DNA of 64,000 nucleotides from a virus (Duplodnaviria; Caudoviricetes), in the IMG/VR virus record IMGVR_UViG_3300019742_000001; one strand, given 5' to 3'. The notes beneath the pieces were generated by a model. That model did no database searches and had not been told where the DNA came from. It saw nothing but the letters and a program-made list of their open reading frames with translations. Shown here in pieces: positions 5,501 to 60,494 of this stretch (the first letter of the stretch is position 1; each line of letters opens with the position of its first letter). Made by a program: the position numbers and the translations under genes.

Positions 5501-8066
5501 TCATACCACCACGAATCTCTAAAGAATCATTTAGGTCACCATCTTCAAATTTATCCCATGCTGATGTTACTTGTGAAGTGTCACCAATCAAATTGCCATC
5601 AACGTTACCGTCAATATTTCCTGTGACATTTCCTACTACATTACCATCAAGGTCACCTGTAAAACTTCCTGTAAACTCAGAACCATTGATAGTTGTTACA
5701 TTAAGTGTTCCTATTGTTGCTATATCAGACTCAATGTTTGTCGAACCTAATATGTTATTTACGTATAATGAACCCCATTTACTACCAACACTACCAATAT
5801 TTCTGGTTGTATCGGGAATCAAATCAGATCCAACAGTAGTCAATACTAATGTGTTTACTGTAAGATTAACTATATCCGCTGTTTCAGAATCTACATTAAC
5901 AGAATATATGTTAGCCCATTGATTAGTTGTTGAACCAATGTCTCTTGTATTAGTAACGTCTGATATAACGTTTGATTGTACGTTTGTCCAAGGGACCGTT
6001 GCAATAAAACTACCTGTGATATCACCAGTAACATTCAAATCACCACCAATGAATACTTTCTCATCAACAGTTAAACTCTTACCAACATGAACACCACCAA
6101 CAACATCTAATGCATCAGCAGTTCCGACATCAGAAACTAGATCCCAACCAGAAGTTACCTGAGTTGTTGAACCAATCAATGATCCAGTAAGATCACCAAT
6201 CACATTCCCTGTCAAATCACCGTTGAAATCACCGACAAAAGAACTACTGTTAATTGTCGTTACATTAAGTGTTCCTATAGTTGCAACATCTGATTCTATA
6301 TTAGCAGCACCAAGTAACTGAACAGTGTATAAAGAAGACCATTTGTTTAACTCAGTTCCGATACCATACCCATCTTCTGGGATAAGACTAGAACCAACAG
6401 TACCAACAACTAACGAACCTATGTCACCGTTATCTGCAATCACATCAGTAACATTAACTTCGGAACCCACAACATCACCTGTAAGACCACCTGTCACATT
6501 ACCTGTAAGATCACCTGTTACATTACCAGTTACGTCACCAGTAAGATCACCAGTTACGTCACCAGTAAATACTGCGTCAGTACCATCAGATCCATTGTTT
6601 AATATTGTCACTAAACCATCTTGAGACAATACGGCACCTGTTACGTTTCCTGTGACATCACCATCAACACTACCGATAAGATCACCGGTTACAGTTCCGG
6701 TCATATCACCAGTAAGATCGCCAGTCACATTTCCTGTTACATCTCCTGTAACATTACCTGTAACATTACCTGTAACATTACCTGTAAGATCACCAGTTAC
6801 ATCACCAGTAAGACCACCTGTCACATTTCCTGTGACATTACCAGTAAGATCTCCAGTTACATTACCTGTTACGTCACCTGTTACGTCACCTGTAAGACCA
6901 CCTGTTACGTCACCAGTTACATTACCTGTAAGATCACCTGTTACATTACCTGTTACGTCACCAGTAAGACCACCTGTCACGTTTCCTGTCACGTTTCCTG
7001 TGACATCACCAGTAAGACCACCTGTCACATTTCCAGTAAGATCGCCAGTTACATTACCTGTTACGTCACCTGTGACATTACCTATAAGATCGCCAGTTAC
7101 ATCACCTGTGACATCACCTGTAAATACTGCATCACTTCCATCAGTACCGTTATCAAGAACTGTTACCAAACCATCTTGTGATAATACATCACCTGTTACA
7201 TTTCCTGTCACGTCACCAGTAAGACCACCTGTCACATTACCTGTAAGATCACCAGTTACATCACCAGTAAGACCACCTGTGACATTACCAGTTACATTAC
7301 CAGTTACATCACCAGTAAGACCACCTGTGACATTACCTGTAAGATCACCTGTTACATTACCAGTAAGACCACCTGTGACATTACCTGTAAGATCACCTGT
7401 TACATTTCCTGTCACGTCACCTGTAAGAGATCCTGTCACGTTACCAGTTACATTACCAGTAAGGTCACCAACAATAATGGATGCCATTACATTGGTTGCA
7501 TATAAATTAGCCCAACGACGAATCGCACCACCAAGATTATATGAATCATCTACATCTGGTGATAATGCCGAATTAACGGAAGTTGTAACTGTCAATGTAT
7601 CACCTGACATAGATCCAGTTAATGTAATATTAACAAAATCTGTAATATCACCCAAACCAGAACCAGTAATTGTAACAACACCTGATATGTCTTGGTCTAG
7701 TAGAAGATCTCCACCAGTAATGGTTGTATCATCACCAAGAATTGTTGTACCTGTAACGCCTAGTCCACCAGCATTAACATTTTTTGCAATCGACATACCA
7801 CCTCTTGTAGAAATGGATGCAATCTCATCTGTCGGACCTGTTGAGTCAACTAAATCAATTACGTGTAAAGGTTCTCCGAGATATCCCGGACCTCCACCAC
7901 CAACCTCAAGAATAGCTGTTCGTAGTTCGTATAAAACATCGTCTAATCTGTCACCTAGAAAAATATTACTAGGATCTACCATAACAATGTTGGTTTCGGT
8001 TAACACGTTTACCCAACCATCGTTAGTGGAATTTCTTAAATTTACCTTGTATTCGGTTTCAGCCAT
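2505..8066 (-). CDS. Giant tail-fibre/structural protein with G[DNG][VL]T tetrapeptide repeats
   Basis: Likely start MAETEY at 8066 (GGAG SD, TATAAATA upstream). Gly/Thr/Val/Asp-rich beta repeats, TGALV..GG.GI modules, and a C-terminal domain ending GWKIV typical of T4-like fibre proteins. Confidence 0.8.
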   Translation of the reverse strand: MAETEYKVNLRNSTNDGWVNVLTETNIVMVDPSNIFLGDRLDDVLYELRTAILEVGGGGPGYLGEPLHVIDLVDSTGPTDEIASISTRGGMSIAKNVNAGGLGVTGTTILGDDTTITGGDLLLDQDISGVVTITGSGLGDITDFVNITLTGSMSGDTLTVTTSVNSALSPDVDDSYNLGGAIRRWANLYATNVMASIIVGDLTGNVTGNVTGSLTGDVTGNVTGDLTGNVTGGLTGNVTGDLTGNVTGGLTGDVTGNVTGNVTGGLTGDVTGDLTGNVTGGLTGDVTGNVTGDVLSQDGLVTVLDNGTDGSDAVFTGDVTGDVTGDLIGNVTGDVTGNVTGDLTGNVTGGLTGDVTGNVTGNVTGGLTGDVTGNVTGDLTGNVTGDVTGGLTGDVTGDVTGNVTGDLTGNVTGNVTGGLTGDVTGDLTGNVTGNVTGNVTGDVTGNVTGDLTGDMTGTVTGDLIGSVDGDVTGNVTGAVLSQDGLVTILNNGSDGTDAVFTGDVTGDLTGDVTGNVTGDLTGNVTGGLTGDVVGSEVNVTDVIADNGDIGSLVVGTVGSSLIPEDGYGIGTELNKWSSLYTVQLLGAANIESDVATIGTLNVTTINSSSFVGDFNGDLTGNVIGDLTGSLIGSTTQVTSGWDLVSDVGTADALDVVGGVHVGKSLTVDEKVFIGGDLNVTGDITGSFIATVPWTNVQSNVISDVTNTRDIGSTTNQWANIYSVNVDSETADIVNLTVNTLVLTTVGSDLIPDTTRNIGSVGSKWGSLYVNNILGSTNIESDIATIGTLNVTTINGSEFTGSFTGDLDGNVVGNVTGNIDGNVDGNLIGDTSQVTSAWDKFEDGDLNDSLEIRGGMTVDKNLNVGRTLNIGQDLHVTGSLSASSLTLPSVMTDLTGNIKSQDGVVVVVENGTDGSDAVFTGQLDGNLNGNIVSASSSFTELSGGNIITSGEATVNSLNVLNVVESNLIPLGSFTLGNQLNRWNEIYGTTITGSSFVGGTFTGSFMGNLGLPTTSSNNFNVVGDLDVTGEITGGQITFSVVTSNVVGDVLSQDGLVTVLDNGTDGTDATFLGDVTGNIQGDLTGNIVSPVTTHVTSTTDSTSWDTGSLILDGGQGIAGNLNVQGDIHTLGNMTIGAVFDAPNFIFLNGVISGNVQSVNKDTGALVITQGGIGVEQDINVGGSVGIVTDLNVSGLTTLDDNTQINGIVDINNAVDVDMTDGDFDVVITTGNFSVDVTTGNVDITTNQTLTVEGDVVDIHGISTVNLDTTDLVVDTTSFVITSDTNTINGTLNVNDDLNIGSDNTDTVNINSKIGTTLYSFDNTQSLGSTGDMFNEAYFNRFIAEGGNTTTNTTTGDIVTAGGIGVGENLYVGSNTTIVNDLGVGGNTTLTGTLLVTNDTQSIDVITGSIVTAGGMGIGRELFVGGQVNALSGFIGDITGNVLGDVQGDVQGSLVGETVEADVITSNISLYVGSTSELAGIVTITDTTGSTGKDSGALVVDGGVGIEENLHVGGSVTIGTTFEAPDFVFQFGEVQGSISSTDKDTGAVVITQGGLGVEENVNVGGYVNVVGNISTTSGTIGGLTAVELTQLNNIDSVTITNGQWVYVGDMNQSVTTTDNVTFNAVKVNDTTTSTNKDTGALVVEGGVGIEENLNVGGNTGFIGNVTVSGDLTVNGTTTTINSTTVRVEDNIMVVNAGEIGAGVTIGTAGIEVDRGSEANFQFIFDESDDLFRVGKVDSLQAVATREDTPKSLGTAIWDDTTSKFITINWESATDAQTLVSGRKYLADGSISSLVLPISPVQGHTIIIHDEMGDWFNSPVFIDRNGNNIMGVADDLVLNTDNATVELVFTTSKGWKIV
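6470..7460. repeat. Degenerate 12-bp tandem repeat tract (GDVT/GNVT/GDLT/GGLT)
   Basis: Dozens of acc(t/a)gt(t/c/a)ac-type 12-mers in frame. Confidence 0.9.
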
Positions 8067-8104
8067 ATTAAATATCTCCAAAAATATGATTTTATATATA
8101 CTCA

Positions 8105-8112
8105 TATTTATA
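8105..8112 (-). promoter_or_regulatory. T4-type late promoter TATAAATA
   Basis: Exact match about 40 nt upstream of the fibre start. Other copies lie at 11405(-), 13318(-), 15677(+), 18574(+), 40725(-), 48201(-), 49611(+) and 56982(+). CATAAATA variants lie at 10158(-) and 13330(+). Confidence 0.8.
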
Positions 8113-8152
8113 TAATTTTTCTCATTGCCACCCTCTCATCCATAAAATACAC

Positions 8153-8187
8153 AAAAAAAGGGATACCCAAAAAATGAGTATCCCTTT
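8153..8187 (-). terminator. Rho-independent terminator
   Basis: Stem aaagggatac/gtatcccttt followed by a T-run on the minus strand. Confidence 0.75.
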
Positions 8188-8211
8188 ATACATCTAATTA
8201 TTTGTTAATTT

Positions 8212-8568
8212 CTATACAAATAAACGATCTAATGCCAACATATCCTTGGCACTAATTGTTGCGTCTTCACCCAACACCCCGATATCCATAGGATCAAATG
8301 AGATTTCAACCTCTTGTGATAAGAGTTCATTGAATTCTTCAACAAATGTCTCCATGTTATCGTCTTCGACTTTGATTGTTCCATCATCATCGACAGTACC
8401 AACACGTTTGATAAGACTGACCCGAAACTCTTCAATCTCGGCTAACTCCTTATCAAACCCAGACACCAATTTTTTTAGATTCCATGCCGCCTTAACGGGA
8501 ATAGGTTTTTCCAACAGACCAATCAATGGGTCTTTCATGTTACGGATCTCTCCGAGTGCAAATTTCAT
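8212..8568 (-). CDS. Conserved helical phage protein (DUF1617-like, often next to tail genes)
   Basis: Pattern P.KAAWNLKK....KELAEIEE.R..LIK..G...ELL.QEVEI recalled from phage tail-adjacent proteins. Confidence 0.45.
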   Translation of the reverse strand: MKFALGEIRNMKDPLIGLLEKPIPVKAAWNLKKLVSGFDKELAEIEEFRVSLIKRVGTVDDDGTIKVEDDNMETFVEEFNELLSQEVEISFDPMDIGVLGEDATISAKDMLALDRLFV

Positions 8569-8615
8569 TACAAATTACCTCCATACAGTTTTGTTTTTAT
8601 TTGTGTTACATCTTA

Positions 8616-9698
8616 CTATGTGTTATAATCTTTGTCAACTTCATCGTAATATTTTTTCCGATGATGTATCACACCACCGATAATATCTGCCGCTATTTTT
8701 AGTATAACTTCATCACGATCTTTAAATTTTTTGTGTCCATTGTAATAGTCAAAACCTATGAATCCCCACCACTTACTATCAGAGAATATCGGTACACCCA
8801 AAACTATTACGTCTTCTGAACAAATACAATGTTCTCTTTCAGGGCATATACCACAACGAGGTAGTGTTGTTTGCACTGATTCTCCTGTCATCATTGATTC
8901 TTTTAACTCAGGACATAAGTCATAATTAATACAATCATTTATATCACTGGCAACATCACAGATCCTTGACATTGGGTTTAACCAAACTGACACTATGTTG
9001 GAACATACCCTCTCTTTTTTTTCCTCATTTTCGAATATATATACTCTGTGTGCCCCTACAGCACCACCCAACTCAGAAAGTATTTCTTTTAACGCATCTC
9101 TCCAATCACTGTGGTTAGTTAGAATCTTACTCATATTTGATATCGCCGCAAACAAAGAAGTTCTTCTATTCAACACTTTCTTTTGAAATTCTACTTCGGT
9201 TACGTCTCTGGATACTCTCACACACCCCACAAAATCACCTGATTCATCAAAAATTGGGGTTGTTTGTACATCGTATGATCGGTTGTGGTGTTCTATCATG
9301 GATTTCTGTGGTTCGTGTGTATCTATACATTTAGTTACAATACACTTGTCATCAGGAAATCCCAAAACTTCCTTATAAAAATCCACCCAATTCATTTCTA
9401 TTAATTCTTCATATGATATACCTTCTGGTTCTACACATTTCATAAATGCATCGTTACACCTGTTGATATTATAATCAACGTCTACAATAACTATAGAATC
9501 ACTTATCGAATCAAATGTTCTATCCCATTCAACACTTTTACGAGTAATTTCAACGTTTTTTGTTTCGATCTCTTGTTTTAGTCGTTTTAATTCTGATATA
9601 TCTTTAGATATACCTTCAATCGGCTCATAATTACATATGTGCTTTGTTGGAACCAAGAAGTTTGTTAATGTATCAGACCATCTATCCACGAATTTCAT
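8616..9698 (-). CDS. PAS + GAF domain sensor protein without an output domain
   Basis: WDRTFDSISDSIVIVDVDYNINRCNDAF is a PAS start. LGGAVGAHRVYIFEN...GVPIFSDSKWWGFIGFD...ILKIAADIIG is a GAF domain. Confidence 0.8.
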   Translation of the reverse strand: MKFVDRWSDTLTNFLVPTKHICNYEPIEGISKDISELKRLKQEIETKNVEITRKSVEWDRTFDSISDSIVIVDVDYNINRCNDAFMKCVEPEGISYEELIEMNWVDFYKEVLGFPDDKCIVTKCIDTHEPQKSMIEHHNRSYDVQTTPIFDESGDFVGCVRVSRDVTEVEFQKKVLNRRTSLFAAISNMSKILTNHSDWRDALKEILSELGGAVGAHRVYIFENEEKKERVCSNIVSVWLNPMSRICDVASDINDCINYDLCPELKESMMTGESVQTTLPRCGICPEREHCICSEDVIVLGVPIFSDSKWWGFIGFDYYNGHKKFKDRDEVILKIAADIIGGVIHHRKKYYDEVDKDYNT

Positions 9699-10069
9699 GA
9701 AATGTTCTCCTCATCAAAATCAACCCCATACTTAAACCCCTTCAAATAATCGTTATTATCTCTTGGAAGGAGCATGTATATACCACTACTGTTATTTATA
9801 GGTAATTTATTATTTCTTGTCGATGATGATCCCATTGTTAATTGGTATACCAAAACCCCAACAAATATAGATACTACTGTTGATATCATAAACCCAGCAA
9901 CCAACCCCCATACAGCAGCTTTCGATTTTATGGAAACAATCTCAACTTGGGTTGTTAGGTTAGTATCGTTTATTCTCTGGTCAACTACATCAACCTTTTT
10001 TTCCAGCTTCTCTAGGGTCATCAGAACGTGATTTGACCACGATTCCCACCCTTGATTACTATCTCCCAT
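9695..10069 (-). CDS. Single-TM holin/XhlA-like membrane protein
   Basis: N-terminal coiled coil (GWESWSNHVLMTLEKLE...) then the TM segment AAVWGLVAGFMISTVVSIFVGVLVY. Confidence 0.45.
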   Translation of the reverse strand: MGDSNQGWESWSNHVLMTLEKLEKKVDVVDQRINDTNLTTQVEIVSIKSKAAVWGLVAGFMISTVVSIFVGVLVYQLTMGSSSTRNNKLPINNSSGIYMLLPRDNNDYLKGFKYGVDFDEENIS

Positions 10070-10167
10070 TGTATAATACCATCCTATGATTACCTGTTTA
10101 ATTCCAAATGGTTACATAGACATTTTTAGATTACTCACTTTTTCATTCGGATATATGTATTTATGTA

Positions 10168-10685
10168 TCATCTATTAAATATTCCTGTTTTGTTTCCTTT
10201 TTTAACATTTGACTTGGCTTTTCGGAACTTCTGTACCAAATTAGTTCTCAACTTCTTACTGAAGTCCTTTGACCATGTACTAACGACAACATCTTCTATG
10301 TCTTCCATCGGAACTTCCATAGGGTTTGATATATAATATGATGGGTTATAAAAGTATCTTCTTACAGCATTTTTAAGAAATGGGAACTCAGATAAAAGTC
10401 TTTCCCATGTCAACCTAAAGTTTCCGTTTGTGTGTTCCCATTCTCTCATCCAAGATTGAACAAAATGTCTACGGTGAGTTCTTGGGATATAAGTGAAATT
10501 AATTCCTTGGAAGAAATGCCATTCGTGTCCAGTGTTTGGATGTCTACCAGAATACGCATACATCAAAAGTATCGTAGGATTAGGATCATTATGCCACGCA
10601 ATCAAGTATAGCGGAATTTGTAAAAATGACCCGATTTCCAAAGAACATTCTGGAATCTCTTAGTATATTGTATCCTAAGTGCCAT
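10168..10685 (-). CDS. T4 gp2-like DNA end protector protein, apparently frameshifted near codon 27
   Basis: DP.PT.L...FQGINFTYIP..R...NAVRRY resembles the gp2 core and the gene sits near gp4. The natural N-terminus (ATG 10685, ...KSGHFYKFRYT*) is in a different frame from the body (10641..10168). Confidence 0.5.
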
Positions 10686-11388
10686 AACAAATATCCGCTA
10701 TATATACGTCCTCACTATTAAAGATTTTGTTCATTAATTGCTCCTTTGTAATATCACACCTATCTCGTTTTATTATATTTTGTTTCCTATCCAACATTCG
10801 TAGGTTATTTATGTTTGATATTATATACGGTGGTATGTTTTGTCTAAAACCTTCCTGTACTGAATATATATGATCTAAATTATACTTACTCCTTGGCAAA
10901 CCATCAGGGTTTATTTCACCAATGTGTTTTCTATACACTTTTTCTGTCATATTATATACTGTTCTTCTGTATATCTTCCATTCACCCCAAAGTTCTTCTT
11001 TAGTAAAACCTCTGATAGAATCCCAATATTTAACATGTTTTTTCCCATTCTCTTTTCTGGCATCTTTACATTTCTTTGAGTTTTTTATAGAAACACTCAT
11101 ATTACTTCTGTAATCATCTGTTGTTCTTATGTCACACAACCTATCATAATCTATTTTCCACCTACTTTTCTGTGAACACGAATTACAAATGTGATCAGGA
11201 AATTTGTTTATAAATTGATATGAATTACTGTCAAACACCTCACCACAATCAGGGCATATAATTTTAATTTTTAGTGTGGATTTTTTAGGGAAATGTTCAT
11301 CAAGTGATCTACCATCATACCTTTCGATAACACATAATTTCATTTCGTCAGTTAGTAACCTAATTCTCGACCCTATATTATAACTCAT
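10675..11388 (-). mobile_element. Free-standing HNH homing endonuclease with Zn ribbon
   Basis: CPDC/CNSC and YNLDHIYSV...NINNLRML..KQNIIK. It lies between gp4 and the gp2-like gene with its own TATAAATA at 11405. Confidence 0.75.
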
Positions 11389-17195: not shown

Positions 17196-18554
17196 ATGAC
17201 AGAATTTGAAGCTGGAAAAAAATTGATATTAACAATAGAACGTCTCGGATGTACGGCATATCTTGTAGGTGGTTGTGTTCGTGATATATTATTAGGTCTT
17301 GTTCCCCATGACATAGACTTAGTTACCAGTTGTTCTATGGATGAACTTGAAGAATACTTCACTTGTCACGACATAGGTCAATCAAAATCATTCGGTATAG
17401 TGTGTGTGGAGTTTGAAGGATTTACTTTTGAAGTCGCTCAAATGAGAGTTGATGGTGAGTCTTCTGATTCCCGACACCCTGATGAAGTTATGTTTACTGA
17501 TGATATAGAACTTGATCTATCACGACGAGACTTCACGATAAATGCAATGGCAATGGAGTTTGACGGAACCATAATAGATCCTTTTGGTGGTCAACAAGAC
17601 CTGTTAGACGGTGTTGTTCGTTGTGTCGGTGATCCTGTTGACCGTTTCCAAGAAGATACTCTTAGAATGATAAGGGCTGTTCGTTTCGCATCTCGTTTCA
17701 ACTTTATATTAGAACGTTCCACTTTTGCCGCCATACGTTCTCTCAGTAGAACAATAGACAAAGTTTCACCAGAACGTATAAAAGGTGAACTGTTTAAAAT
17801 GGCAAGTGGTTCTGGTAATCAATTTGCCGAGTCTATAAAACTTCTTGATCGGTGCAAACTTCTTGAGTTTATATTACCAGAAGTAAAGGCGTTACAAAAT
17901 GTTCAGGAAGAACCTCGTTTCCACCCCGAAGCATACATGTTTGGTGACGGAACACCTTTTGATCATACTATGGAAGCAATAAAGAGGAATGTTCATACAG
18001 ATCCAATGATAAACGTTGCTGTTCTGTTACACGATCTTGGTAAATCCGTTACACACGAACTTGATAAAGGTCGGTATGATGAGTATCGTCATCGGTTTCA
18101 CGGTCATGGTCACGCTGGAGTGAGGTTGGTTAACCAAGTCGCAGATCGTCTCAAATTCTCAAATGATGAACGAGACGCATTCGTATTTACTGCACAACAC
18201 CATATGGATCTGTTACACACAAGTAAAATGAGGAAATCAAAAGCATCTGTATTGGCAAACCACGAATTATTCCGACTACTTACAGAGGTTATGTACTGTG
18301 ATGATAGTTGTCGTGGTGACCTTTTTGATTCAAATGAATTCTTTTCTAAGATAGAAGAAATAGTAAAGGTTGGTCGTGACTACAATAAGGTCTGTAAAAA
18401 CAAACAACTCTTAGATGGTAAAGTTGTTATGGAACTAACAGGTCTTCCACAAGGTAAGGAACTTGGACAGTTAATGAAAGATGTTACTGAGAAATTCCTT
18501 GATGGTGATGACTTTGTATGTATAAAGAAACTCATATTAGATTCCGTTAAGTAG
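17196..18554 (+). CDS. cca: CCA-adding tRNA nucleotidyltransferase with HD domain
   Basis: YLVGGCVRD.LLG...DIDL, DLSRRDFTINAMA, RFQEDTLRMIRAVRFASR, LLHDLGK. Confidence 0.92.
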   Translation: MTEFEAGKKLILTIERLGCTAYLVGGCVRDILLGLVPHDIDLVTSCSMDELEEYFTCHDIGQSKSFGIVCVEFEGFTFEVAQMRVDGESSDSRHPDEVMFTDDIELDLSRRDFTINAMAMEFDGTIIDPFGGQQDLLDGVVRCVGDPVDRFQEDTLRMIRAVRFASRFNFILERSTFAAIRSLSRTIDKVSPERIKGELFKMASGSGNQFAESIKLLDRCKLLEFILPEVKALQNVQEEPRFHPEAYMFGDGTPFDHTMEAIKRNVHTDPMINVAVLLHDLGKSVTHELDKGRYDEYRHRFHGHGHAGVRLVNQVADRLKFSNDERDAFVFTAQHHMDLLHTSKMRKSKASVLANHELFRLLTEVMYCDDSCRGDLFDSNEFFSKIEEIVKVGRDYNKVCKNKQLLDGKVVMELTGLPQGKELGQLMKDVTEKFLDGDDFVCIKKLILDSVK

Positions 18555-31992: not shown

Positions 31993-33054
31993 TTACATGT
32001 TATTTAATTGTTCTTTGAACCAAATAACTGATACTCGGCTCACTAGAGGAAAGATCTGTTTGGGAACTAACCCTTGATTTCTCATTTCATCTGATTCTTC
32101 TTTGATGATATCACTGTTAACTTTCTTTAAGAACTTCCCTACATCTTCAATGTCTAATAGTTCTTGGTTCTTTTCTTCCTGAACTTCTTTATACATCTGT
32201 TCTAGTCGCCACGCTCTGCAGCAATACTCTGTCACAAAATCCTGTTTCTTCTGTTCTAATACATCATCAACAGGTTTTAGTGTTTTGACCTTACTTGAAC
32301 TATGTTTTCCCCCTTTCACTTTAAACTTGTATACTTCACCATTAAATTCAAATGTGTATACATATCCTTCTAATGTATTATTCTCCACACCAAATGTATT
32401 ACCAACAGGTGAATCGGATTCATTTTTTTCTAAGTTATTCAACATCTTATTGATACTTCTTTTTGGTTCATTAAAGTTAATCAATGTACTGACACTTGGA
32501 AAATTGGTGATGTTCCACATCTGATTTTCTTGACTGTCAATCCATGTACTGTTGTACTTTGTTTCTACCCATGTATTCACACTGTCTTCGGTGGGTTCAA
32601 TGTCATAAATCTTACAGTGACGGAAAATCATTAACTTTTTTCCTAATCCACTTACCGCAGATTTCTTTTGGATACTACCACCACACCACTCACCATAGAT
32701 AATGATACCTTTGGACTCTAAATCTACACTGTACTGGACACTAAGTGATTTAATCATATCAATCATCACTTCTTGAATTCCTTCACAGTAGAACGCAAAT
32801 CCATAGTGATCTTCTTCAACAGATAAAATACGTTTTTTACTCTGACACCAAAACCCATCCTTTTCATTAAAACTAAATCCTACATTAGTGCCGTGGATCT
32901 TCTCTGTTCCGATGCAACTGATAATAGGTAATGGGTCGGTTGAGTATTTGACTTTCCCTTTCTCATCAAGACCTGTGTATCTTGCCTTATGAGTTACATC
33001 TTTTACAATTTGTTGGAAACTTTTAATACTTCCATAATTGATTAATCGTTTCAT
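31993..33054 (-). CDS. RNA ligase, Rnl2-family
   Basis: TEKIHGTN (motif I), QSKKR, IYGEWCGGSIQK, EGYV, KFKVKG. Confidence 0.82.
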   Translation of the reverse strand: MKRLINYGSIKSFQQIVKDVTHKARYTGLDEKGKVKYSTDPLPIISCIGTEKIHGTNVGFSFNEKDGFWCQSKKRILSVEEDHYGFAFYCEGIQEVMIDMIKSLSVQYSVDLESKGIIIYGEWCGGSIQKKSAVSGLGKKLMIFRHCKIYDIEPTEDSVNTWVETKYNSTWIDSQENQMWNITNFPSVSTLINFNEPKRSINKMLNNLEKNESDSPVGNTFGVENNTLEGYVYTFEFNGEVYKFKVKGGKHSSSKVKTLKPVDDVLEQKKQDFVTEYCCRAWRLEQMYKEVQEEKNQELLDIEDVGKFLKKVNSDIIKEESDEMRNQGLVPKQIFPLVSRVSVIWFKEQLNNM

Positions 33055-58979: not shown

Positions 58980-60494
58980 ATGACACTAAAAGATGAATAC
59001 GAAAAACTAAAATTAAACCCTGTTCTGACTGAGGTAGAAGGTATTGACTCTGATCCAGAAGGGGAAGAGACACCAGAGGTTGAATTAGTTGAAGGATTTA
59101 ACGTACTTATACTGACATCATCAACTGACTCAAAGAATAACAGAATGTCTAAGAAAAATCCAACTGTTGTTAAAATGGAGAATTGGTGTAAATCAAACGA
59201 TGTTCCTTATTACACGGCATTTGCTGACACAGCAATTTTAAGTGTGAACGATGGTGAGATCCGTATTCATAATATTAACGACACCGATGGATGTGTCATT
59301 GATCGTGATAAGACATTTGTTATCGCTCGTCGTGGTGTTATGTTCCATAGATATTCACTTAACCTAATGTCTCGTTTGGAGAGATATCGTTTCTGTTTCC
59401 TTAATGAACGTGTCGCTCTTGAGACATGTGAAGACAAATACTTAACAAACCTTAACCTTATTGAATCTAAGGTACCTATCCCTGATTCACATTTGGTGCC
59501 AACTGAGGAAATGATTACACTTGCTCACGAAAAAGTTGGTGGTAAATTCCCTATCGTGGTCAAGACATTGAATGGTACTCAAGGTAAAGGAGTGTTCATT
59601 GTCAACAATTACAAGGCATTGAAGTCAACACTACAGGCTATTTGGTCTGTTGGTGGTGATGTGGAAATGATGTTCCAACAATATATCAAGTCAGAATATG
59701 ATGTTAGAATACACGTACTTGGTGATGAAGTAATTGGTGCAATGAAAAGAACAGTAGTTGATAATGACTTCCGTTCTAATGTTCATTTAGGTGGTAAGAC
59801 CAGTAAATACAAACCATCCAAAGAAATTAAAGAGTTGGCTGTTAAAGCCGCTCAGGCTGTTAAATGTAAATGGGCTGGTGTTGATATTATGTTTGATTCT
59901 AAAGATAATCCATATGTATTGGAAGTTAATGCTTCAGCAGGTACAGATGGTATTGAAGATCTAACTGGTATTGATATTGTTGGTAATGTGATGGAGTTTT
60001 GCAAAAATGGTATCAATTGGAATAGACCACCTCAACAGGTAGGTGTGGTTGAAACTATGGAAATTGATGGTATTGGTGAATTAATAGCTCGGTTTGATAC
60101 TGGTAATGACGCTAATAGCTCCTCACTTGACGCACAAGACATTAAAATCAATGGAACCAAGGTTACGTGGAAGACTAACGGTAAAACTCTCACAGGGTCA
60201 ATCATTGGTAACGTACGTATGAAGAATAATCACGATCCAGATGAAAAACTTGATGCAAAACGTCCTATCGTATTATTGGATGTTACGTTCCAAGGTGTTA
60301 CTTATAAAGATGTTCCGTTTAATCTTAATAATAGAAGCAATAAAAAAACACCTATTTTGATCAATAAGAACTTTATGATCCAATCTGGTTCTGTTGTTAA
60401 TCCATCTAAAATTTATAGTGTAACATCAAAACCTGACTATTTAAAAAAGAAAAGAAAGAAAATAGTAAAAAAAGAAGAAAGAGACGAAAATTAA
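58980..60494 (+). CDS. rimK: RimK-like ATP-grasp ligase fused to a retropepsin-like (RimK-associated) protease
   Basis: FPIVVKTLNGTQGKGV, QQYI...YDVRIHV, FRSNVHLGG, GVDI, VLEVN; ARFDTGN and PILI.KNFM. Confidence 0.85.
   Translation: MTLKDEYEKLKLNPVLTEVEGIDSDPEGEETPEVELVEGFNVLILTSSTDSKNNRMSKKNPTVVKMENWCKSNDVPYYTAFADTAILSVNDGEIRIHNINDTDGCVIDRDKTFVIARRGVMFHRYSLNLMSRLERYRFCFLNERVALETCEDKYLTNLNLIESKVPIPDSHLVPTEEMITLAHEKVGGKFPIVVKTLNGTQGKGVFIVNNYKALKSTLQAIWSVGGDVEMMFQQYIKSEYDVRIHVLGDEVIGAMKRTVVDNDFRSNVHLGGKTSKYKPSKEIKELAVKAAQAVKCKWAGVDIMFDSKDNPYVLEVNASAGTDGIEDLTGIDIVGNVMEFCKNGINWNRPPQQVGVVETMEIDGIGELIARFDTGNDANSSSLDAQDIKINGTKVTWKTNGKTLTGSIIGNVRMKNNHDPDEKLDAKRPIVLLDVTFQGVTYKDVPFNLNNRSNKKTPILINKNFMIQSGSVVNPSKIYSVTSKPDYLKKKRKKIVKKEERDEN

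Follow-up and report, generated by a model that had tools for sequence, protein, structure and literature searches.

The late region of an uncultured, giant, T4-like phage carries two overlapping genes, one for a PAS-GAF sensor protein without output domain and one for a small protein with a single transmembrane (TM) helix. We read them, with a probability of about 45%, as a late two-protein module in which the sensor would control an accessory membrane protein and thereby tune lysis. The pair lies in a stretch of 64,000 nucleotides, called the window hereafter, and is not described in the literature that we searched, most of it outside subscription journals. The present analysis contributes the counted enrichment of sensor genes, with controls, beside the family of the TM protein, the existence of cupin partners, a cross-validated helix that the partners share, a cysteine cluster specific to the sensor family, and a spanin cassette located elsewhere, which weakens the holin label of the TM protein.

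The pair and its surroundings are organised as follows, with positions given in the window.

8157..8187, minus strand: terminator-like 13-bp stem-loop with a T run, at the end of the unit, after the 118-aa gene
8212..8568, minus strand: 118-aa gene (phrog_1401), after the sensor gene
8616..9698, minus strand: PAS-GAF sensor gene, 360 aa, made of amphipathic helix, coiled coil, PAS and GAF, without output domain
8667..9110, minus strand: GAF domain, about residues 197-344, with conserved C232, C247, C256, C282, C285 and C291
8820..8855, minus strand: CX2CX5CXC loop, residues 282-293, specific to this phage sensor family
9192..9515, minus strand: PAS domain, residues 62-169, with conserved C119 and C124, and C88 in 23/30 sequences
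9567..9605, minus strand: 13-residue helix, residues 32-44, in the register of the helix common to PAS and cupin partners, degenerate in this copy
9654..9698, minus strand: amphipathic helix at the N-terminus, residues 1-15, which may anchor the sensor at the membrane surface (from its hydrophobic moment)
9695-9698, minus strand: ATGA overlap of partner stop and sensor start (ORF coordinates)
9695..10069, minus strand: TM partner gene, 124 aa, single TM, with a predicted cytoplasmic amphipathic/coiled-coil helix, KxKAGxWG motif, TM and disordered tail
9707..9712, minus strand: GAGGAG ribosome-binding site of the sensor gene, within the last partner codons, 8 nt before the sensor ATG
9833..9919, minus strand: predicted TM helix of the partner, residues ~51-79 (hydropathy; helix in the model)
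10158..10165, minus strand: CATAAATA, resembling a T4-type late promoter, in the gap that follows the gp2-like gene

The ORF coordinates and the ribosome-binding site bear out the preliminary description of this DNA, in which the sensor gene overlaps the stop of a single-TM gene by ATGA. The overlap is observed, and the sensor would be produced alongside its TM partner through translational coupling. The overlaps of the pair share one frame relation, which raised the idea of a programmed frameshift fusing the two genes. We rejected it, since there is no conserved slippery heptamer, a ribosome-binding site precedes the second ATG, and one locus has a gap of 10 nt. The pair had also been placed under a late promoter. 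The motif CATAAATA does lie 97 nt upstream of the ATG of the TM partner. The number of its copies in the window is at chance level (20 observed vs 18.5 expected), but about half of them shortly precede gene starts, as T4-type late promoters do. In 4 of 16 loci, YATAAATA lies no more than 100 nt ahead of the TM gene; in 5 others it is about 1.2 kb upstream and precedes a gene located in between.

The pair is surrounded in the window by genes for a gp4-like head-completion protein, a gp2-like protein, GroES, and a large tail/fibre protein, which places it in the late region of a T4-like phage. The 118-aa gene, which follows the sensor gene in several loci though not in all, is probably on the same transcript. 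In many relatives, the gene directly upstream of the TM gene is actin-like (Pfam Volactin; e.g., L004:8518-9627, L005:8504-9619, L008:8534-9601, and L100:4920-6041) and is preceded at about 90-140 nt by YATAAATA where checked; the window has no such gene. The window has a 237-aa Zn-ribbon/HNH-like gene (phrog_5104, 10675-11388), placed between those for head completion and the gp2-like protein and provided with its own TATAAATA, which is probably a homing endonuclease and is present at that place in some relatives only. Further genes of the window resemble a tRNA nucleotidyltransferase/poly(A) polymerase (17196-18554) and a RimK-like ATP-grasp enzyme (58980-60494), and another encodes an RNA ligase (31993-33054). 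Contigs of the stretch without differing letters or gaps are present in four public runs of microbial-mat metagenomes, which may be its source.

Pfam matches PAS_4 at residues 62-169 of the sensor (E 2e-11) and GAF (PF01590) at residues 199-342, barely above the cut-off (E 1e-4, 23.1 bits vs 22.4). Neither Pfam nor the AlphaFold model reveals an output domain (DHp+HATPase, GGDEF, HTH). The model (pLDDT 83) runs from a helix (3-15) through a coiled coil (30-64), the PAS, a long linker helix, and the GAF to a final helix, and therefore leaves no space for such a domain. Together with the homologues, which all end after the GAF, these results confirm the 360-aa coiled coil-PAS-GAF protein without kinase, GGDEF, or HTH output that had been reported from the sequence. 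Searches by fold with the model match the PAS of CitA (Z 14.5, rmsd 2.5 over 109 residues) and the GAF of fRMsr (Z 15.5, rmsd 2.8 over 151 residues), other GAFs being similar. The likeness to phytochromes and cyanobacteriochromes is one of fold only (9-15% identity), and none of the bilin motifs (DIP, DXCF, CH with attaching Cys) is conserved in the alignment of the family. The c-type heme motif CXXCH is not present either: the CXXC of the sensor precedes P, E, K, D, S, or T, never H. The N-terminal helix has a hydrophobic moment of 0.70, close to the family median of 0.71, vs 0.47 in control genes.

The PAS and GAF domains have a cellular origin, the GAF deriving from a subfamily found in long multidomain cellular sensors. 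Because these are at most 32% identical to the phage sensor and the closest genomes are scattered over many phyla, no donor can be named. When we searched the sensor, a short relative of the TM protein, and the PAS protein of L101 against 50,697 annotated phage records, there were 0 matches, and a sequence search of the PDB gave none. Two multi-PAS-GAF proteins, P0101 (793 aa) and P0110 (637 aa), equally without output domain, have the same docking-type helix and a Cys-poor GAF, and form the sister group of the sensor family in a quick tree.

The sensor has 29 full-length homologues of 330-383 aa (36-56% identity), every one ending after the GAF. An exhaustive profile search added one further homologue, the remaining matches being long multidomain sensors. 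Among related GAF domains, the family makes up one side of a long branch with a support of 98 (quick tree), and its GAF and PAS cores are as strongly conserved as the sensor N-terminus in the family alignment. An orthologue of the TM gene is directly upstream of the sensor gene in 16 of 16 distinct loci, including the window. The two genes overlap in 15 of them, by 4 nt (9 loci), 1 nt (5 loci), or 13 nt (1 locus), and are separated by 10 nt in the last one. Wherever Pfam annotation shows the head-completion gene, the pair is downstream of it. The dN/dS ratios of the sensor (0.21) and of the TM gene (0.12-0.26, unsaturated pairs) indicate that both genes are under purifying selection. The linkage of the PAS-GAF gene to its neighbour, on which the preliminary description depended, thus holds in every locus examined. 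The description had named three outcomes that would count against it, namely homologues never linked to the holin-like gene, cysteines that are not conserved, and a decaying fragment of a host kinase, and none of them was observed.

The cysteines follow a pattern of their own. A Cys cluster had been noted in the GAF, as C..C.....C.C and in DCINYDLC, and the six GAF cysteines listed above are each present in 26-30 of the 30 sequences. This upholds CX2CX5C and C256 (26/30) of DCINYDLC, but not C262, which occurs in the query only (1/30), nor C293, the last Cys of CX2CX5CXC, which is variable (19/30). The description of the cluster as confined to the GAF was incomplete, as it overlooked C119 (28/30) and C124 (30/30) of the PAS. 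The matching GAF stretch has 5-8 Cys in the phage family vs 0-2 in 359 of 378 cellular domains, and the Cys that is conserved in the cellular subfamily after the WWGFIGFD motif (289/394) is replaced in the phages. Since P0101 and P0110 have the same N-terminus as the phage family and lack the GAF cluster, the latter seems to have arisen within the phage sensor family; the alignment suggests that it was newly gained there and retained across the family. One subclade has jointly lost C232, C256, and C282, so the Cys site is not indispensable. Fe-S motifs of the CX2CX5C type are also found in EndoIII, AddB, and Cas4, and Cys-rich loops can bind structural Zn. CX2CX5C is an element of established [4Fe-4S] motifs (PMC10452713). 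With six conserved Cys in the GAF and two in the PAS, the sensor has the four or more that Fe-S or Zn sensors of the NreB/AirS kind would need to ligate a cluster. These counts point to a putative metal or Fe-S site in the sensor GAF, which may hold Zn instead. Regardless of its role, this Cys-rich GAF is a candidate new metal or Fe-S sensor domain.

The TM partner is modelled as a single long helix (residues 6-79) whose sole hydrophobic stretch is at residues ~51-79, followed by a disordered tail of 45 aa, and the N-terminal part of the long helix would lie in the cytoplasm. It is the long form of a widespread phage family of ~70 aa, whose short relatives end right after the TM, and which is characterised by two N-terminal Trp and by the KxKAGxWG motif before the TM. 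This build fits the XhlA type, i.e., a small protein with an N-terminal coiled coil and one C-terminal TM. PHROG profiles give weak matches, with two 'hemolysin' (XhlA-like) families matching 4/16 and 2/16 members (best 4e-5) and others named 'holin', and hemolysin/holin are the only functional profile matches of the TM family. Its Atlas neighbour is DUF7201, at 0.90. None of its members matched Pfam XhlA, even at E 0.1, and neither gene of the pair has a sequence match to T4 holin T (PF11031), RI, or RIII. The term 'holin-like', used for the partner in the preliminary description, thus agrees with the topology and with these weak matches, but not with the location, which is outside a lysis cassette, and stays a provisional label.

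We then considered the TM family at large. Two scans of viral contigs gave 63 lineages, which were cut at 70% identity and are partly non-independent; ORFs around the family were called by the longest-ORF rule, and neighbours in GC-rich contigs may be wrong. The gene directly upstream of the TM gene, in 59 lineages, encodes a PAS protein without output domain in 9 cases and a cupin in 8 (17/59), and mostly overlaps the TM gene or lies within 7 nt of it. Among 119 more distant control genes of the same contigs, PAS and cupin families have at most one member each, and at most two genes in total, in a listing of 25 of the 42 families that comprises every family with at least 2 members. The enrichment of sensors upstream of the TM gene relative to these controls is significant (Fisher test, p ~1e-7).

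PAS and cupin partners share an N-terminal helix of 13 residues, roughly N-I/L-x-x-L-R/Q-E-L-T-x-x-L. A profile of this helix built from PAS partners retrieves the cupin partners (median 16 bits vs ~0), and vice versa, with p values of 4e-5 to 2e-4 when other neighbours, more distant genes, and N-termini of cellular sensors serve as controls. As the training windows were chosen by eye, we count as evidence only these cross-tests between PAS and cupin and the score of the phage sensor family. The latter has a median of 10.7 bits at residues 32-44, vs about -1 to -3 in controls, and the degenerate copy of the window scores -0.6 bits. The N-terminus of the PAS-GAF family also aligns at the helix to a triple-PAS partner in L108 (E 2e-5), which is the sole significant match of a helix HMM built from the PAS-GAF family alone. 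Two PAS partners have a hydrophobic N-terminal anchor. From these profile matches, the shared helix is likely a docking element for the TM protein. A prediction of the complex, using alignments of sensor residues 1-175 and partner residues 1-82, scored 0.00 and gives no verdict on binding either way. Action of the sensor through its membrane partner gains support because the TM family recurs beside unrelated output-less sensors that share the helix.

Some partners have the helix and no sensor domain (60-85 aa: L316:8293-8481, L369:3262-3444, and L134:3748-4005). The one of L316, with 62 aa, has little besides the shared helix, and those of L369 and L134 are weaker cases. A 105-aa partner that overlaps the TM gene in L320 (1226-1543) resembles a degenerate receiver when read by eye and has no Pfam match.

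According to the preliminary description, the sensor might time lysis through its membrane partner. The recurrence of the partner family beside helix-sharing sensors favours action through the partner, and the topology, the hemolysin/holin matches, and the precedent of XhlA and gp24.1 speak for a candidate role in lysis. Tool-supported lysins lie at most two genes from the TM gene in 9 of the 63 lineages, 5 of which are sensor-linked, and three more lineages have a lysin within two genes by motif. This is no enrichment when compared with positions at least four genes away (9-12/188 vs 6/119, p 0.8-1). Several sensor-linked TM copies directly adjoin lysins, and in most TM lineages, the largest included, the adjacent genes encode neither a sensor nor a lysin. 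In a large marine phage lineage (L102-L103, L110-L179), the 70-aa TM gene is kept exactly between the terminase and the T4-type portal. No recognised lysin adjoins the pair in the 16 loci, except for one C92 peptidase. The gene of this permuted papain-like amidase (Peptidase_C92, L100:7528-8070) overlaps the sensor gene at its end in a single relative; an enzyme related to it is encoded beside the TM gene in L340 and probably in L367. The pair sits among head-completion and tail genes in this clade, and the examined genomes of the clade have SLT only, with no match to Phage_lysozyme, Amidase_2, Amidase_3, M15_3, or M15_4.

A relative that is 98% complete, G001, has its SLT lysin 52 kb from the pair. 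A holin-like (two-TM) gene (9434-9745), then an i-spanin-like gene, and an overlapping gene for a lipoprotein lie 89 kb from the pair, a cassette that we identified by reading the sequences, as it has no profile match and no PHROG name. The arrangement is repeated in the relative G003, and cassettes of this kind are at positions 9434-10454 of G001 (L371) and at L385:1465-2470. Given this separate cassette, the TM protein is unlikely to be the sole holin, and it may be an accessory one. The spanins, as read from sequence, point to a diderm bacterial host. Just before the cassette (G001 6605-9335, L371) there are ThiF/E1-like and JAB-like genes, recognised by reading only, which resemble a phage ubiquitin-like conjugation locus; L097 has a weak match to BubE. 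Another gene of G001 (210804-211106) encodes a 100-aa protein which, with its signal peptide and its three CXXCH motifs, resembles a small multiheme cytochrome c7; this may hint at a host of the Desulfobacterota type. Genes for a receiver, HATPase, or GGDEF domain are missing from G001, and therefore the sensor does not serve as the detached input of a signalling chain encoded by the phage.

Several known systems resemble parts of this arrangement. XhlA of PBSX and gp24.1 of SPP1, both small and anchored by a single TM at the C-terminus, do no harm by themselves but are lethal when a two-TM holin is present (PMC6316719). The TM partner is like them in build and in its weak PHROG 'hemolysin' matches, and its relatives encode a separate two-TM holin-like gene, as in XhlA/XhlB and gp24.1/gp26. 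Unlike them, it has no Pfam XhlA match, has an extra tail of 45 aa, and is not beside a lysin or a second holin. Furthermore, the spanins suggest a diderm host here, and the partner is coupled to a sensor, whereas PBSX and SPP1 have none. T-type holins are among the fold-search matches of the sensor model (E 5e-5 to 6e-4), presumably because their soluble domain is GAF-like. The T4 holin T has a single TM and a functional cytoplasmic N-terminal amphipathic helix that is bound by the cytoplasmic RIII (PMC11413866, PMC12162936). The resemblance lies in a single-TM protein with a separate cytoplasmic protein that binds it, which is here only proposed. The globular domain of T is fused and periplasmic, and its signal is superinfection, whereas the PAS-GAF is a separate protein, predicted to be cytoplasmic, and the tail of its partner is predicted to be disordered.

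On the side of the sensor, NreB (a PAS with [4Fe-4S]) and AirS (an N-terminal Cys cluster with [2Fe-2S]) are known Fe-S sensors (PMC4601167). They have Cys-clustered domains that read O2 or redox state, to be compared with the putative site proposed here. Both are full kinases, and the spacing in AirS is CX7CXCX17C, vs CX2CX5C(XC) plus distal Cys in the phage family. NreA is a stand-alone GAF regulator of NreB (PMC12423327). Like the phage sensor, it is a GAF protein without output domain, and its binding to the partner is controlled by a ligand. NreA acts on a kinase encoded in its own operon and binds nitrate, whereas the coupled partner in the phages is a small membrane protein. Finally, proper lysis timing in F1 mycobacteriophages requires LysF1b, a second holin-like protein with one TMD, as well as a two-TM holin-like protein (PMC13056207). 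LysF1b differs from the partner by its N-terminal TM with N-out orientation, its place inside the lysis cassette, and the lack of a sensor partner. By analogy, the phage module would work like T4 T/RIII or NreA/NreB with an XhlA-type partner, while being a member of none of these systems.

In the mechanism that we propose, the 124-aa protein would be a tail-anchored membrane protein of the XhlA/gp24.1 type with its long helix in the cytoplasm. The 360-aa sensor would be kept at the membrane by its amphipathic helix and, as the co-occurrence of genes suggests, would dock on the partner via the short N-terminal helix common to other sensors. The PAS and Cys-rich GAF of the sensor would respond to a cue in the cytoplasm, which is most likely the redox or O2 state, sensed at a metal or Fe-S site, given CX2CX5C and the distal Cys. 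The coiled coil would relay this cue, and the partner would be held back or released. Depending on its state, the partner would help or delay the canonical two-TM holin encoded elsewhere by the spanins, as XhlA and gp24.1 do with XhlB and gp26.

The same sensor-plus-anchor module could serve an event other than lysis, such as membrane-attached head assembly or packaging, superinfection exclusion, or the draining or preserving of the proton-motive force. We give this a smaller, though appreciable, chance. It is in line with the gene order of the clade, where the pair is always just downstream of gp4-like head-completion and gp2-like genes, with the largest TM lineage lying between terminase and portal, and with the existence of a separate lysis cassette and no enrichment of lysins beside the TM family. 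It fits poorly with functional profile matches that are solely hemolysin/holin and with the sensor-linked copies directly beside lysins, and we know of no assembly role for XhlA-type proteins. One may also suppose that the docking helix is itself the function, as an antiholin-like inhibitor or chaperone comparable to T4 RIII, and that PAS, GAF, and cupin are inert bulk or a Zn scaffold. The helix-only partners of 60-85 aa (L316, and more weakly L369 and L134), the ability of Cys-rich loops to hold structural Zn, and the loss of three GAF Cys in one subclade would fit such a scenario. Yet two unrelated ligand-binding folds were recruited repeatedly, the GAF and PAS cores are conserved like the N-terminus, and the Cys cluster seems to have been gained anew and then kept family-wide, which makes it unlikely.

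The preliminary description had also envisaged a decoy that poisons host histidine-kinase dimers. More generally, the sensor could act on host histidine kinases, either by binding them as a decoy or in the manner of NreA or by depleting their ligand, the TM gene being only an anchor or a neighbour. The GAF does come from a subfamily of long multidomain cellular sensors, any signalling target would be a host protein given the lack of receiver, HATPase, and GGDEF in G001, and a stand-alone GAF can control a kinase in trans, as in NreA-NreB (PMC12423327). We nevertheless find this reading improbable: the sensor has no DHp helices and at most 32% identity to any cellular sensor, the conserved Cys of the cellular subfamily after WWGFIGFD is replaced, and late expression is a poor fit for host takeover. 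It would also leave unexplained the cupin partners, the swap from PAS to cupin next to the same TM gene, and the shared helix. A decaying fragment of a captured host kinase beside an unrelated gene, which had been considered as well, is refuted. The cellular origin of the domains is what would be expected of such a relic, but there are 29 intact homologues of 330-383 aa on a well-supported long branch (98), the dN/dS is 0.2, and the gene order is fixed.

The lysis-tuning module that we prefer may be one instance of something broader. Phages could widely use plug-in sensing, with a tail-anchored TM protein and a docking helix that carries an exchangeable head (PAS, tandem PAS, Cys-rich PAS-GAF, or cupin), the version found here using a new Fe-S GAF for lysis timed by O2 or redox state. 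This extension is tentative, and we would rather doubt it than rely on it. The small size of the partner and the shared helix of 13 residues make the docking idea cheap to test. Known lysis regulators answer to holin dose, membrane energy, or superinfection. If plug-in sensing is true, lysis would be controlled by the cytoplasmic chemistry of the host, in a way distinct from the lysis inhibition of T4. Lytic phages would then be informed directly about host metabolism as infection reaches its final step, and this would be relevant to stratified low-oxygen habitats such as mats and sediments.
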